Made by a program: the position numbers and the translations under genes
Shown: piece by piece, positions 7,472 to 63,162 of the stretch
Layout: every line of letters begins with the position of its first letter
Numbering within the stretch: position 1 is the stretch's first letter
From: Eledone cirrhosa
Taxonomy: Eukaryota
Length of the DNA: 64,000 bases
Direction: 5' to 3'
Assembly (NCBI GenBank): GCA_964016885.1
Contig: OZ024752.1
Coordinates: 124,001-188,000 of the forward strand
The notes under the pieces: model-generated
Seen by the model: the letters and a program-made list of their open reading frames with translations, nothing else
The model's database searches: none
What the model was told of the DNA's origin: nothing

Positions 7472-7678
7472 ATAGGAAAAAGTATGACCCCGACGGCAGA
7501 GCTCAAGCCGTTTCGACGGCTATTTCTGGACTAGAGAAAGATAGTCCAGAAATAGCCGTCGAAACGGCTTGAGCTCTGCCGTCGGGGTCATACTTTTTCC
7601 TATTTCCCACTCTACTACCCTAAGTATTGAGTACTCTGGTGCGTTATGGTCCATCTGGTTCCTTACCACAATTCCTTT
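7472..7678 (+). mobile_element. fold-back element family A (3' half of HHR plus tail) in (TA)n
   Basis: ~62-bp perfect inverted arms, 8-nt spacer; sense arm GCCGTC-GAAA-CGGC ttgagctct GCCG-TC-GGGGTC; ~75-nt tail; flanked by (TA)n. Confidence 0.85.
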
Positions 7679-8074
7679 ATATATATATATATATATAACC
7701 TAATACCTAACACCTTTCGTAACTGTACTCCTTGTTATTTACTTTTCCAATATATATATATATATATAGATAGATAGATAGATATCTGTCTGTTTATCTA
7801 TATATCTATCTGCCTATCTGTTTCTCTGACAATCTGTAGTGTCCCCCACCTCCAAGTCTTTCTACCCTATTTTCCAGCCCTAATTCTACAAACCCTTTTG
7901 TTCCTCTTCCTGCTTGACCCTATTACGACGTACTAAAGTAAATATCTTTAGTCATATATGTAAACTGAGATACCAAGAATGTGTTGTGACGTAGAACCCC
8001 CATTGTTTACGACGAAGAGTGATCCAGTTAAGTATTAGACAATCGAGTGTCAAACGAATATACATATATGAGTA

Positions 8075-8260
8075 CTGGGTTCAATCGGAGTAACCACTGT
8101 TAGTAAGGTACTCAATACATTAGTAGAGTGTAAAAATTCATGTTTAATATAGAAATGGCTTCTACAGGACTAGAACTGTTACATTCAACAGAAATCATGA
8201 TGATTTCTTTTCAATAAAATAGTTCTAGTCTCGTAGAAGCCATTTCTGTATTAAACATGA
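8075..8260 (-). mobile_element. fold-back element family B (decayed HHR)
   Basis: Inverted arms CATGTTTAATATAGAAATGGCTTCTAC..GAAATCAT/ATGATTTC..; homologous to 22703-22894 and 51083-51259. Confidence 0.8.
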
Positions 8261-8432
8261 TTATATATATATATATATATATATATATATATATATATAT
8301 ATATATATATATATATATATATATCATGTTTAATATATATATATATATATATATATATATATATATATATTAGAAAGTGAGGTTTTTTTTTACAAAATTA
8401 AAAATAACCGAGGTGTCCTACACGAATGAAAG

Positions 8433-8661
8433 TATAAGGAAAAAAGATGAAATCGAAAATGCAGCTAGAGTCTTTTTTTAAAAATATATATATATTTATT
8501 TGGTTCCTTTACCGGTTTCGCAGATGTGAGATAAACCACAAACCCTCCATCTCAACTCTACTTTTGAAAAGCGAAACCGGTAAAGGAACCAAATAAATAT
8601 ATATATTTAAAAAAAAAAAAAGACTCCAGTTGCATTTTCGATTTCATCTTTTTTCCTTATA
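8433..8661 (+). mobile_element. fold-back element with HHR 3' half (GAAA-CCGG-TA) and AATAAA
   Basis: ~89-bp arms 8433-8521/8571-8661; GCGAAACCGGTAAAGGAACCAAATAAA; second partial copy at ~50900-51022 (minus). Confidence 0.7.
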
Positions 8662-9468
8662 TATATATATATATATCATGTTTAACAATAACATCGAGGA
8701 GTTGGGTACATGAGGTGTGTATTTACCAAAAAACTGGTATAGTACTTACTGAATAACTATAATGTGTGCACTCTGAACTTTAGGATGCAGTTTCACAACC
8801 ACAAGCTTATTGTCTCATTGAGTGAGTTGGTCATGGTCGGAAATCGCTGAAATAACTGTGTATGGTCCTAAGGAAAATCCTAAGGAATACAAATAGTAGA
8901 GTACTTCACATCTGTTTACGGAAAAAGTCGGCAGATTTTTGATCAACCACTTTCATCAACTGAATATATATGTTCCATTGTCCTTTTCCCTCGGTTACTC
9001 ACTTGCAAGTTCCATTGTCCTCTGTCCCGCCACCATTTGGTCTGTTTAGCTGTTTTTTCTCTTTATTCCTCTCTCCTCACTACTTTCCCCCCTTTTTTTC
9101 TTCTTTTTTCTTTTCTTTTGATCGATAAAAAGCCTTGGGCGCGCCGCTAGTCGTTTTTAGATGTCCTCTGTTAAGCGCCGAAATATCTTGATCTCGGTTT
9201 TACAGCTGATGAAGGATTTCTTTTCTTCTCTTGTTTCGTCCATACTACCATCTTAAACTTTGTTTACAGTAACCACACAGCTCCTTTCGTTATATATATA
9301 TACACAGTATATATATATATATATATAATGGTGGAACACTGGAAGGTAATATCCGTAGGGGTAGAGCACTCAGTCCAAGGGACGCAGTCTAGTATTGCCT
9401 GTATGAAGTGACCGGGTTTCTGCGCATGCACGTTCGTACGGTTGTCCTTCCTGTTCCTATAGTCATGC

Positions 9469-9518
9469 CCATTCCGAGCTGAGGATCCGCTAAGGTGAAA
9501 CAATTGTTCTCGGTATGG
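9469..9518 (+). ncRNA. type I hammerhead ribozyme, intact core
   Basis: Helix I CCATtCCGAG/CTCGGtATGG; CTGAGGA 9479-85; short helix II (U.U, CC/GG); GAAA 9497-9500; palindromic helix III ACAATTGT; GUU site. Confidence 0.8.
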
Positions 9519-9625
9519 TGAACTAACTGTTGTGTAACCACTTATATATATATAAATGAAGTATTTCCGTAGAAAAGGTAGAGGAAGAAAGTATGCTCTA
9601 TGTATAATACAGAGCTATTTAATTA

Positions 9626-9747
9626 TGTAATAAACAACACAATACAATTATCCTTTCTGACGAACGACTTCGGACACCTCTGTTGAGGTCGCCTGTCTTC
9701 GTGACACCTTTGGTAAATGGAATAATTGTATTGTGTTGTTTATTACA
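9626..9747 (+). ncRNA. hammerhead ribozyme with one core mutation (GAAA>GACA) inside ~30-bp inverted arms
   Basis: CTGACGA 9657-63; helix II ACGA/TCGT with inner ACCTC/GAGGT hairpin; GACA 9703-06; helix III ACC ttt GGT; GUA; long helix I. Confidence 0.65.
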
Positions 9748-60231: not shown

Positions 60232-60726
60232 TACTACTACTACTACTACTACTACTACTACTACTACTAAAAACATAAACAACCGCCGCCACTGCCACCG
60301 CAACAACAATAACAACCTCAACAACCACAACAATAATAATAACAACATCAACAACAACCACAACATCAACAACAGCCACAACAACAACAACCCAACAACA
60401 ACAACCACAACCACATCAACAAGAACAACAAGCCCAATAGCAACAACAACAACCACAACAACAACAACCACAACAACAACAACAACAACCACATCAAAAA
60501 CAACAACCACATCAACAACAACAACAACAACAACAACCACAACAACAACATCAATAACCAACAACCACAACAACAACCACCACCACCACCACCACCACCA
60601 CCACCACCACCACCAACAACAACAACCACAACAACAACCACAACCTCAACAAACAACAACAACCACAACAACATCAACAACAACAACCACAACAACATCA
60701 ACAACAACAATCACATCAACAACAAT
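60232..60726. repeat. (ACT)n/(AAC)n/(ACC)n tract
   Basis: Direct inspection. Confidence 0.95.
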
Positions 60727-60839
60727 AGATGATAAATAAATATAAATAAAATGCTTTTAAGTGGTCGCCAATGAATCGTTAATAGCATTGCTACATAAAA
60801 GATTATATTCTGTTTAAAGTCATTAGTATTATCATTATT

Positions 60840-61433
60840 GAGCGGGGTGGAGCGTCAAACACTATGCTTTGCAGCATAGAGTTATGGCCCTTTATGATCT
60901 GAGTTCAAATCCCGTCGAGGTTAACTTTGCCTTTCTTTCTTACGGCGTCGATAAAATAAAGTACCAGTAATGCACTGGGATAATTGCTGGCCTTGTGCCA
61001 AAAGTAGAAACAATTATTAAGCGGGGTGGAGCATCAGACACCATGCTAGGCAGCATAGAGTTATGTCCCTTTACCGCCTGAGTTCAAATCCCGCCGAGGT
61101 TAACTTTGCCTTTCATCCTTATGGGGTCGATAAAATAAAGTACCAGTAACGTACTGAGGGTCGATAAAATAAAGTACCAGTAACGTACTGAGGGTCGATT
61201 TAATCGACTTTCCCCTCGCCCCAAATTACTGGCCTTGTGTCTATACTAGAAATCATTAGTATCAGTAGAAGGTCGGACGCCATGCTTTCCAGTATAGTTA
61301 CGTCCCTTTACGGTCTGAGTTCAAATCCCGCCAAAGTTAACTTTGCCTTTCATCCTTACGGGGTAGATAAAATAAAGTACCAGTAATGTACTGAGTAATT
61401 ACTGGCCTTGTGCCAAAAGTAGAAACAATTATT
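60840..61433 (+). mobile_element. three head-to-tail SINE family 1 copies
   Basis: Three B boxes GAGTTCAAATCCC with core and tail; internal ~34-bp duplication in the second. Confidence 0.9.
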
Positions 61434-61836
61434 TATCGAGACCATTACTTAGGTATGTCTTCACATTTTCTAATCCGCACACGACATCTGTGTGTTGGAC
61501 GACAATCGTGGGTTCCAGCCACGAGTGTTCCAGAAATAAACGGTGAAATAAACGTGCAAGTGGCTGAGCATTCCACAGACACATGTCCCTCCTCCTTTAA
61601 TGTAATTCTCAGGGAGATTTTGAGTAAGACAGTGTGTGACAAAGAAAGTTGACTTTTTTAATTACAGGTATAATTCACTGTTTCAAACTAAATGAACTGG
61701 AACAACGTGAAATAGGGTATTTAGAGAGATACACATGGACATTACACAACACACTCTCACACACACACACACACACACACACACACACACATTTATATAT
61801 ATACATGTATGTATGTATCTCTCTCTCTATATATAT

Positions 61837-61976
61837 AACGAAGGAGTTGTGGTAAGGAACCAGATGGACCATAACACAGCAGAGTACTCAATACTTAGGG
61901 TAGTAGAGTGGGAAATAGGAAAAAGTATGACCCCGGCGGCAGAGCTCAAGCCGTTTCGACGGCTATTTCTGGACTA
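61837..61976 (-). mobile_element. family A element, single arm
   Basis: Reverse-oriented tail plus HHR 3' half, truncated at TAGTCCAGAAA like the other copies. Confidence 0.85.
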
Positions 61977-62439
61977 AATTAGAATTTTTAGCCTGGTGAA
62001 TAAATAGCCGAACTTGTCAAGGGGTACTTCCTTATATGGGAAGATTGTCAAGAGGATTGGTTAAAATTTGTTGTAAACACAAATAAGTCTAATATATATA
62101 TATAATATATATATATACAATCTTGTAACAGATTAAAAGCAGAATGTAGAGGAGGCACAAAAGAGAATAGCAATTGAGGAGGTCACATTTTCTACACGTG
62201 TACATTTTTTAGACATGTTTATAAAACCTATATATTGATTCTTCATTTAAGCACAACACCTGCAAATGTTTGGGAAAGGTAAAGTTGATTTCATCAACCC
62301 CAGTACTTTACTGGTACTTTATTTTATCGACCGCGGAAGGATGAAAGGCAAAGTCGATGCGAACTCAATGTAAACAGCTAGAAAAATGATATATATTTTA
62401 TCTGGTGTTCTATAATATGTATATATTAGTGATAGTTGA

Positions 62440-62790
62440 TGCAGCGTGGTTGAATGGTTTAGATGCTCACTTCGCAATTATTAGGTCCCGGTTTCGATCT
62501 CACTCCGTGGCAACCCTTGAACAAGAGTAATTTACCCTAGCCTCTGATTAACACGAATCTTGAGTGAAATTGGGGAGCGGAAGTTGTTTGGAAGCCCGTC
62601 ATATGGACTGTCGCTATAATTCAAACGGCCAGCCATGTTACATACTCTGTCACGCTGAATCTCACCGAGATTGACATTATGGCTACACGTATCTGTGGAA
62701 TGCTCAGCCACTTACACGTTAATTTTGTGAGCAGACTGTTTCATTGATAGAACAACTAGAACACTCATCGTCACCACAGACGGAGTTCCA
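62440..62790 (+). mobile_element. tRNA-derived SINE family 2 copy
   Basis: A/B-box-like head; body shared with 5820-6090 and 16317-16615. Confidence 0.65.
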
Positions 62791-63120
62791 TTGTGTATTA
62801 GTAATAACAATTTTAAGGTTGTGGACTGTCTAGATTTTATTCAATTATATTTGCATAAGATTTTATTTCAATTTACGTCTATTATATATATATATATATA
62901 TATATATATATATATTGTTATACTTGGGGAGGGTCATATTTGTGTAATATTGCCAGAATTAATAACAGAACACACTCACTGTTTGGTTGGTTTTCGCTTT
63001 TCGCTTCTGTGTCTTTTATATCGGTAATCTAATTTATTCGGTCCTCAATGTTGCCATTGACTGACCGGCGGTCAAAAATAATACAGATACAATATAGACA
63101 CAAACACATATATATAGTTT

Positions 63121-63162
63121 ATCAGAGTTCTTTCGTTGCACATCTGCAACATCGTCAGTGGT
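63121..63162 (-). ncRNA. minimal hammerhead ribozyme candidate
   Basis: ACCA-CTGACGA-t-GTTGCA gatg TGCAAC-GAAA-GAAC-TC-TGAT; helix II perfect 6 bp, helix I weak (one mismatch). Confidence 0.6.

Follow-up and report, generated by a model that had tools for sequence, protein, structure and literature searches.

Minimal hammerhead ribozymes have been reported in metazoan Penelope-like elements (PLEs), where they form many families per genome, mostly solo copies from truncated elements, and opposite-strand pairs 100-700 bp apart, with a palindromic helix III, a bulge before position 10.1 and a U3-A8 core variant (Cervera and De la Pena 2014, PMC4209133). The Hydra clade of PLEs, known from ~23 families that are mainly cnidarian, combines a DKT motif, a CxCX5C linker, a ribozyme, (TA)n targets and an inverted 5'-truncated copy with a tail (Craig et al. 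2021, PMC8557442). Non-LTR (long terminal repeat) retrozymes are tandem units, low in GC and free of coding sequence, that each contain a single type I ribozyme; a PLE origin and mobilization have been proposed for them, and 126,247 motifs have been counted in the axolotl (PMC7229834; Li et al. 2026, 10.64898/2026.07.22.740005). Promoters of PLEs have been located in the pseudo-LTR (pLTR) (PMC2377424). The protein of the Anolis Poseidon element PAc cuts AT-rich DNA, with both strands cut and extended, and in vitro it starts reverse transcription at two adjacent internal sites with uncleaved RNA as the template (Frangieh et al. 2024, PMC11167929). Many of these features recur in a population of hammerhead motifs in Eledone cirrhosa, which was analyzed in a stretch of 64,000 nucleotides (assembly GCA_964016885.1, contig OZ024752.1, positions 124,001 to 188,000 of the forward strand; hereafter the window) and elsewhere in the genome.

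The best overall explanation, to which a probability of about 0.7 may be given from sequence comparison, is that these motifs are mostly the 3' pLTR stubs of autonomous PLEs, accompanied by at least one retrozyme family that would use the same insertion route. A PLE origin as such is very probable. Massive solo minimal hammerheads in many families, (TA)n targeting, the inverted copy with a tail, the U3-A8 variant and PLE-derived retrozymes are already in print, and the motifs found here, which are real, add a very large case to a kind of element that was known before.

The window belongs to a 3.0-Gb assembly; its sequence is AT-rich animal DNA, of which simple repeats make up 33%. The initial annotation had listed 12 hammerhead cores from more than 10 families, nearly all close to (TA)n. 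These cores are real, although the positions given for them mark motif edges, which lie from a few to ~70 nt off the CUGA. A strict descriptor of the minimal type I hammerhead matched five of the 12 sites (10081 on the + strand, 23845+, 37143-, 40562- and 58976-), compared with 0.03 expected from 200 local dinucleotide shuffles of the window. A relaxed descriptor, in which a mismatch at 10.1-11.1 and a helix III of up to 22 nt were tolerated, gave ten matches, every one among the 12 listed sites, compared with 0.26 (maximum 2) in 100 shuffles. The relaxed descriptor was drawn up after the sites had been inspected, and the strict count is therefore the unbiased figure; early descriptors were blind to zero-loop and long helix III forms. 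The two sites that failed, 22767 (helices I and II damaged at the fold-back centre) and 63158 (helix I of only 2 bp), have relatives within their families in which the motif is present. The string CTGANGA occurs 36 times in the window versus 17 in shuffles, and G3-C8 and A3-U8 cores in the window are no more frequent than chance. In an Rfam scan of the window, the 150 listed matches out of 315 were microRNA-like noise, and none was to a hammerhead family.

Approximately 13 families, plus one half-core family, could be told apart by BLAST and by eye, in agreement with the number previously claimed. The four decayed cores that had been noted are also present (GACA after 9657; a U missing near 15468; an altered core at 23662; CCGAUGA at ~24087 on the minus strand). 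A run of (TA)5 or longer lies within 250 bp of 12/12 cores and within 200 bp of 11/12, compared with 42% and 37% of non-repeat positions, respectively. The supposed 3'-half copies exist, but they belong to family D, whose whole ribozyme has a UUGANAA (U3-A8) core and whose full copy at 62024-61931 had been overlooked. An AATAAA follows only four of the 12 cores, and three of these are one family, in which it overlaps helix I. The elements of the window are as follows.

7475-7677, + strand: family D fold-back flanked by (TA)n, an inverted short arm and a long arm with a ~77-nt tail; its start falls inside helix II, so that the 5' half of the ribozyme is missing
8071-8261, - strand: family C fold-back, core decayed
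9330-9542, + strand: family E insertion, an inverted tail-only arm (9330-9382) joined to a short-ended arm; parent of Hydra type by its motifs
9474-9513, + strand: ribozyme of the family E insertion, core 9479, predicted cut after 9508, U10.1-U11.1
9620-9760, + strand: decayed ribozyme, core 9657, GAAA replaced by GACA
9845-10196, + strand: family I element; ribozyme 10077-10112, core 10081, bulged A before G10.1, ACGU palindrome
15439-15585, + strand: decayed ribozyme, U4 missing, CGCGCG palindrome
15692-15876, + strand: family D fold-back with tail
22703-22897, + strand: family C fold-back, core 22767, damaged helices
23600-23783, + strand: decayed ribozyme at 23662; in its relatives the core is intact and helix II is compensated
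23838-24094, no single strand: family J pair, in which a long arm (+) and a short arm (-, decayed core ~24087) meet tail to tail across (TA)18
23837-23912, + strand: ribozyme of the family J long arm, core 23845
24445-24635, + strand: family D fold-back with tail
24669-25206, + strand: family B partial tandem of retrozyme type, ~1.3 units; ribozyme 25041-25083, core 25047; octamer ATGCAAAT upstream
35859-36073, + strand: fold-back with tail of a second family D subfamily
36099-36360, + strand: family F element; ribozyme 36194-36306, core 36201, U10.1-U11.1, with a helix II domain of 80 nt on a 9-bp base
36963-37218, - strand: family A long-ended copy; ribozyme 37154-37087, core 37143; parent of Hydra type by its motifs
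40467-40600, - strand: family A short-ended copy, core 40562
44813-44967, - strand: diverged fold-back related to family D
45016-45310, no single strand: family G fold-back; ribozyme on -, core 45183, A10.1-A11.1; the junction severs the 5' strand of helix I
51090-51257, no single strand: family C fold-back; core 51210 on +, U10.1-U11.1, predicted cut after 51248
58634-58825, + strand: family D fold-back with tail
58880-59085, - strand: family A-related short-ended copy, core 58976
59405-59547, + strand: family C fold-back, truncated within the ribozyme
61838-62089, - strand: family D long copy; whole U3-A8 ribozyme 62024-61931, U3 at 62020, probably dead (U16.1 changed to C); parent of Hydra type by its motifs
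62916-63543, - strand: family H 5'-truncated PLE; broken GIY-YIG C-terminus 63543-63400, 3' untranslated region, ribozyme core 63158

The abundance of these motifs was further examined in 56 hand-picked 10-kb stretches, placed at round coordinates of ten large contigs (560 kb, a small sample). The relaxed descriptor found 54 motifs in 25 of the 56 stretches, compared with 0-2 in ten shuffles, and motif density is far above that of shuffled sequence in the sample as in the window. With an earlier descriptor, 43 of 48 matches were located within 300 bp of (TA)5+, versus 31% of random positions. Extrapolation from this small, hand-picked sample gives 2.9x10^5 motifs per genome (bootstrap 1.8-4.1x10^5), whereas 2,000-9,000 per genome have been reported for metazoan PLE hammerheads (PMC4209133). 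Exact-pattern matches genome-wide amounted to 11,474 for family B, 9,954 for D, 3,796 for A, 3,225 for E, 2,457 for I, 1,245 for F, 243 for a C subfamily and 225 for a G subfamily, and reversed controls gave 0. From the sample and these counts, the window is typical to rich in such motifs and no special locus.

Coding parents were sought in stretches fetched elsewhere in the genome (loci with L numbers), taken as widely spaced pairs from the match lists. For family A, broken reverse transcriptase (RT)/GIY-YIG frames lie upstream of the ribozyme on the same strand in three of seven chosen loci (L091-L093), with a fourth coding fragment in L094. Long copies of family D continue into RT and endonuclease frames (L098/L099, L106, L150-L152), and RT/GIY-YIG frames lie upstream of the family E ribozyme in L166, L167 and L169. 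The family H copy carries the end of its GIY-YIG domain inside the window, upstream of core 63158, contrary to the statement that none of the motifs had a coding open reading frame (ORF); this copy ends in the first codons of an ORF, followed by (TA)n. A near-complete relative of H in L015 (1450-6150, - strand) has the order pLTR-ORF-pLTR and also ends in an ORF start, and its ORF matched RVT_1 with an E value of 2.7e-4, below the cut-off. This PLE additionally shows CX4CxxC and CCHH motifs (Neptune-like by eye) and one frameshift in an Asn/His-rich stretch. An old, broken GIY-YIG fragment of the L015 type is present in the window at 50038-50470 (- strand), with no ribozyme seen near it.

A DKT motif was recognized by eye in the parents of D and E and CxCX5C in those of A and D. 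By such motifs, and following the definition in PMC8557442, which also requires that CCHH be absent, the parents of A, D and E are assigned to Hydra-type PLEs, which are abundant here in a host other than the mainly cnidarian ones; Pfam did not recognize the Hydra-type ORFs. Four window families (core 9479; cores 37143, 40562 and 58976; core 63158; and the '3'-half' family D) are, as far as these frames indicate, the 3' pLTR ends of coding PLEs. Retrozymes have no coding parent and come in tandem units, whereas coding parents were found for A, D, E and H. The link to PLEs drawn in the initial annotation was borne out by this search, and its further suggestion that an RT/GIY-YIG protein is encoded elsewhere agrees with a PLE coding share of 4% in the 560-kb sample. 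A local PLE protein has at least one octopod homologue, 39% identical, among the 120 matches listed. Three further ORF links were tried and rejected: those of family C at L067 and family I at L051 are separate neighbouring insertions, and that of family F at L163 is a local duplication. Loci L148 and L149 of family C contain no ORF.

A different picture was obtained for family B, the part of the population for which the description as non-autonomous held; for the population as a whole it did not, four families being ends of coding PLEs. Family B is made of non-coding 422-bp units in tandem arrays of up to ~10 and in fold-backs, with a longest ATG frame of 55 amino acids, and no PLE frame was seen beside any of its ribozymes among the loci screened (ten loci by eye). 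Judged by these units, family B (25047) is a true non-coding, non-autonomous tandem retrozyme type. It resembles the non-LTR retrozymes (PMC7229834; 10.64898/2026.07.22.740005) in its tandem arrangement of low-GC units that lack coding sequence and hold a single type I ribozyme, and differs from them in that a PLE-type fold-back, two fixed ends and (TA)n flanks are seen directly, and in its U10.1-U11.1 core. The length of its units lies within the 150-450 bp expected of retrozymes. In L154, an array of the form ABAB, in which units 1 and 3 are identical and unit 2 differs at 16 places, suggests the copying of a dimeric circle; DNA-level duplication would look alike. A further family has tandem units of 522-528 bp with a C10.1-A11.1 ribozyme and the palindrome CTAATTAG (L072:6638-9636, L062, L002, L097). 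In L072 these units lie directly upstream of an RT/GIY-YIG frame, and the tandem pLTRs look like a nascent retrozyme.

As had been proposed for a helix III fit for dimers, and as is known from dimeric PLE ribozymes (PMC4209133), 8 of 9 helix III segments can pair with themselves into full or nearly full duplexes, the exception being 23845. Twenty-three distinct copies of family B were aligned by a flank (2 of 25 copies were omitted because of deletion or divergence); pairing holds in 97.8% of the cells, and a single pair of helix I occurs in four forms (U-G 12, G-U 8, A-U 2, C-G 1; 0/500 shuffles). Matching double changes were seen by eye in helix I of family C and helix II of the 23662 family. 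The full ribozyme of family D has a CCCC/GGGG helix I and the UUGANAA core, and its position 7 (10 C, 6 A and 4 T in the 20 intact cores of 25 matches) varies as expected for a free position. Positions 10.1-11.1 are U-U in families B, C, E and F and A-A in G, while some families have Watson-Crick G10.1-C11.1. In the 560-kb sample, 35 of the 54 motifs have no mismatch there and 19 do (12 U-U, 6 C-A, 1 A-G), whereas the conserved G10.1-C11.1 was stressed for metazoan PLEs (PMC4209133). A natural U10.1-U11.1 at the base of stem II has been described as the best tolerated mismatch and as a surprising exception (Perreault et al. 2011, PMC3088659), but in the present genome it is the norm for four families, each of which has from hundreds to thousands of exact copies. 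In the explanation favoured here, the fold is kept in the active lineages and most likely cuts slowly in tandem transcripts, either by dimerization or with the aid of a protein. In one locus (L024:1500-1620), a chimera passes from family A to family C within the ribozyme, which suggests a template switch between families.

The insertions share a common footprint. The ribozyme lies on the coding strand within the pLTR, and in every family the 3' ends fall at two fixed points, separated by 55-95 nt (tails of 30-40 nt were given in PMC8557442). Measured from the cut site, these ends fall at ~+20 and +97 in D, +51-56 and ~+147 in A, +27 and +96 in C, and ~+36 and +105 in E; those of family B are ~55 nt apart. 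TA occurs within 22 nt past the fixed ends in 211 of 253 cases (D 78/79, A 57/68, C 64/94, E 12/12), against a background of 9%. Of the two roles proposed earlier for (TA)n, that of target fits better than that of a sequence seeded by the elements; yet the family B unit has an internal (TA)6-9. Among 96 inverted pairs, 16 had one unclassifiable end, and the remaining 80 comprised 76 long+short, 3 short+short and 1 long+long (binomial p ~1e-18 versus half). The short arm extends further 5' in 31 of the 76 and the long arm in 21. Three long+short pairs are arranged tail to tail around one (TA)n (window 23975, L044, L057; by eye, from 25 candidates in 838 runs), and in three cases the arms have no sequence in common (window 9330-9542, L096, L136). 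In 30 family C loci inspected by eye, the long arm holds the asymmetric centre in ~15 and the short arm in ~10.

The 5' ends, counted in loci chosen independently of family, also cluster, at -46 to -23 in 46/60 copies of D and at -44 to -36 in 24/32 copies of C, and only 2/60 and 2/32 extend further. The elements had been called ribozyme-processed, but a start within 6 nt of the cleavage site was found in only 3/60 copies of D, 1/32 of C and 1/18 of A; because so few copies begin there, the templates are taken to be mostly uncut RNA. For family D, a 28-mer upstream has 968 matches and one spanning the cut 9,954. The family C edge (-44) lies 31-32 nt past TATAAATA (a TATA box) in 3/3 distinct long copies; the family D edge (-41/-42) is the A of TTAGTC, which is initiator-like, and lies 30-34 nt past TATTT in 28/28 matched long copies. 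By the general rules of promoters, both edges may be read as predicted transcription start sites. Also upstream of the ribozyme, the sequence ATGCAAAT, presumably an octamer motif, occurs on either strand in B, A and G (window 24961-24968; L092, L089), and GCGCATGCGC, which is assumed to be NRF1-like, occurs in family E and L015. An octamer promoter is used by newt satellite 2.

A mechanism can be proposed for this footprint, although confidence in the complete two-primer run-off scheme falls slightly short of even. The GIY-YIG endonuclease would nick both strands of (TA)n, and uncleaved RNA would be reverse transcribed twice, from the two internal start sites. A complementary DNA (cDNA) begun in the first pLTR would reach the 5' end of the transcript after 60-200 nt, run off there and remain as a short stub. 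Two cDNAs from opposite strands would join their 3' ends at short palindromes to give head-to-head pairs, the other nick stagger would give tail-to-tail pairs, and the stubs would be mostly dead by-products. In family D the whole ribozyme would be found in the downstream pLTR only, because the predicted start lies within helix II. The Anolis PAc system is similar in the two internal RT starts bounding the tail, the AT-rich cleavage of both strands and the uncut template, but no pairing of both starts in one insertion, and no tie of short copies to run-off at the transcription start, was found in that report (PMC11167929).

Several observations weigh against this interpretation. The start sites are motif predictions, the TATA-like motif of family D sits in helix II, and the fold-back spacings of family E disagree with its nearby TATAA. 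The 5' ends of family A could not be mapped all-against-all, as fold-back arms and TA runs interfere, and divergence between subfamilies, like the palindromic junctions, makes 5' ends from BLAST imprecise. Loci selected by ribozyme pattern supplied most of the A and C pairs, and unequal arms could also be obtained by later asymmetric deletion in palindromes. No contiguous parent ORF was found for families C, F, G, I, J and the decayed ones in the few long loci examined. The covariation rests on one pair in related sequences. Motifs of this type have low published cleavage rates, and no cleavage in vitro was reported for 8 of 9 Xenopus retrozyme dimers, so that a good fold is no proof of activity.

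A PLE origin might also be combined with inverted copies made by self-priming (snap-back), RT stalling at ribozyme hairpins and later deletions that leave unequal arms. Self-priming is the published reading of palindromic junctions (PMC3846280), the junctions here do use short palindromes, and the 5' edge of family D is within the helix II apical stem. Extra events would be needed for the different fixed end of the second arm, for the short arm reaching further 5' (31/76), for the arms that share no sequence (9330-9542, L096, L136) and for the tail-to-tail pairs, and this alternative appears rather unlikely. The initial annotation had favoured another view, in which most families are non-autonomous and ribozyme-processed, replicate via cleaved or circular RNA and borrow a PLE protein. 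Family B fits it well (422-bp tandem units, no ATG frame beyond 55 amino acids, an ABAB array like rolling-circle dimer copying), the sharp 5' edges of C and D are such as short master elements would show, and five families are without a found parent. As a general account it is improbable: four families run upstream into PLE ORFs, the 5' half of the ribozyme is missing from most D copies, the cut site is seldom the start of a copy, and the family C centre lies on either arm (~15 versus ~10 of 30), unlike the copying of one master. Chance matches in AT-rich, palindrome-rich repeat DNA, or DNA transposons of the miniature inverted-repeat transposable element (MITE) type, might be suspected in a window that is one-third simple repeat with many inverted repeats flanked by TA, but the chance that they explain the motifs is negligible in view of the shuffles (10 versus 0.26 in the window, 54 versus 0-2 in 560 kb), the helix covariation, and the unequal fixed ends and upstream RT ORFs, which are foreign to MITEs.

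Other repeats were also observed in the window. TA-flanked fold-backs or repeats with a long/short look and no ribozyme core lie at 8373-8657, 35649-35829, 50515-50812, 50903-50998, 58049-58142, 58396-58613 and 59109-59351, and are probably stubs of other PLE families. A 730-bp element at 44057-44790 has 147-bp inverted ends (98% alike), each with CUGAUGAAGGAC, a conserved GAAA ~30 nt upstream of it and none downstream; it has relatives in L060, L103 and L139 and is reminiscent of the motifs termed 'half-core' in Naiad PLEs. Degenerate (TA)n tracts several kilobases long, together with a satellite of 22 bp, occupy 1-5370, 29900-33650 and 41960-44056, the contig start being 124 kb away. Remnants of Tc1/mariner-type transposases (DDE_3, HTH_32), an L1/Tx1-type zf-RVT fragment and, by eye, fragments of a restriction-like endonuclease LINE (long interspersed nuclear element) and a CR1/L2-like element are distributed over 40811-41899, 46938-47546, 27938-28417, 37673-37900 and 63580-64000. 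A very common repeat of 180-200 bp, similar to short interspersed nuclear elements (SINEs), is without a hammerhead core and independent of (TA)n (14942-15087, 22019-22232, 29449-29662, 40111-40302, 52127-54336, 60846-61436).

A partial literature search of main texts found no report of hammerheads in octopus or cephalopods, and none of paired priming, run-off or strict long+short pairing in PLEs; the main text of an Octopus vulgaris repeat paper mentions neither hammerhead nor ribozyme nor retrozyme. Short TA-flanked fold-backs are easily misannotated as MITEs or SINEs. The value of the present case lies in its scale and testability, as thousands of near-identical copies give a sharp prediction on how the inverted repeat and tail are formed; that process, and the role of the ribozyme in PLEs, are the questions addressed by the long+short pairs, the 5' edges and the uncut templates. 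Family B offers direct footprint evidence of a retrozyme moving by the PLE route. The broadest proposal, held tentatively, is that each insertion would consist of two coordinated cDNAs, each primed on a different strand of a cut (TA)n and forced to begin at different internal starts, one long and one short, most of them running off at the cap. If it is true, the long-puzzling inverted repeat and tail would be accounted for, and ribozyme cleavage would not be needed for insertion in vivo. The genome would be among the most hammerhead-rich known, with U-U, A-A and C-A at 10.1-11.1 and the U3-A8 core as family norms, and a retrozyme would have been caught using the PLE route.

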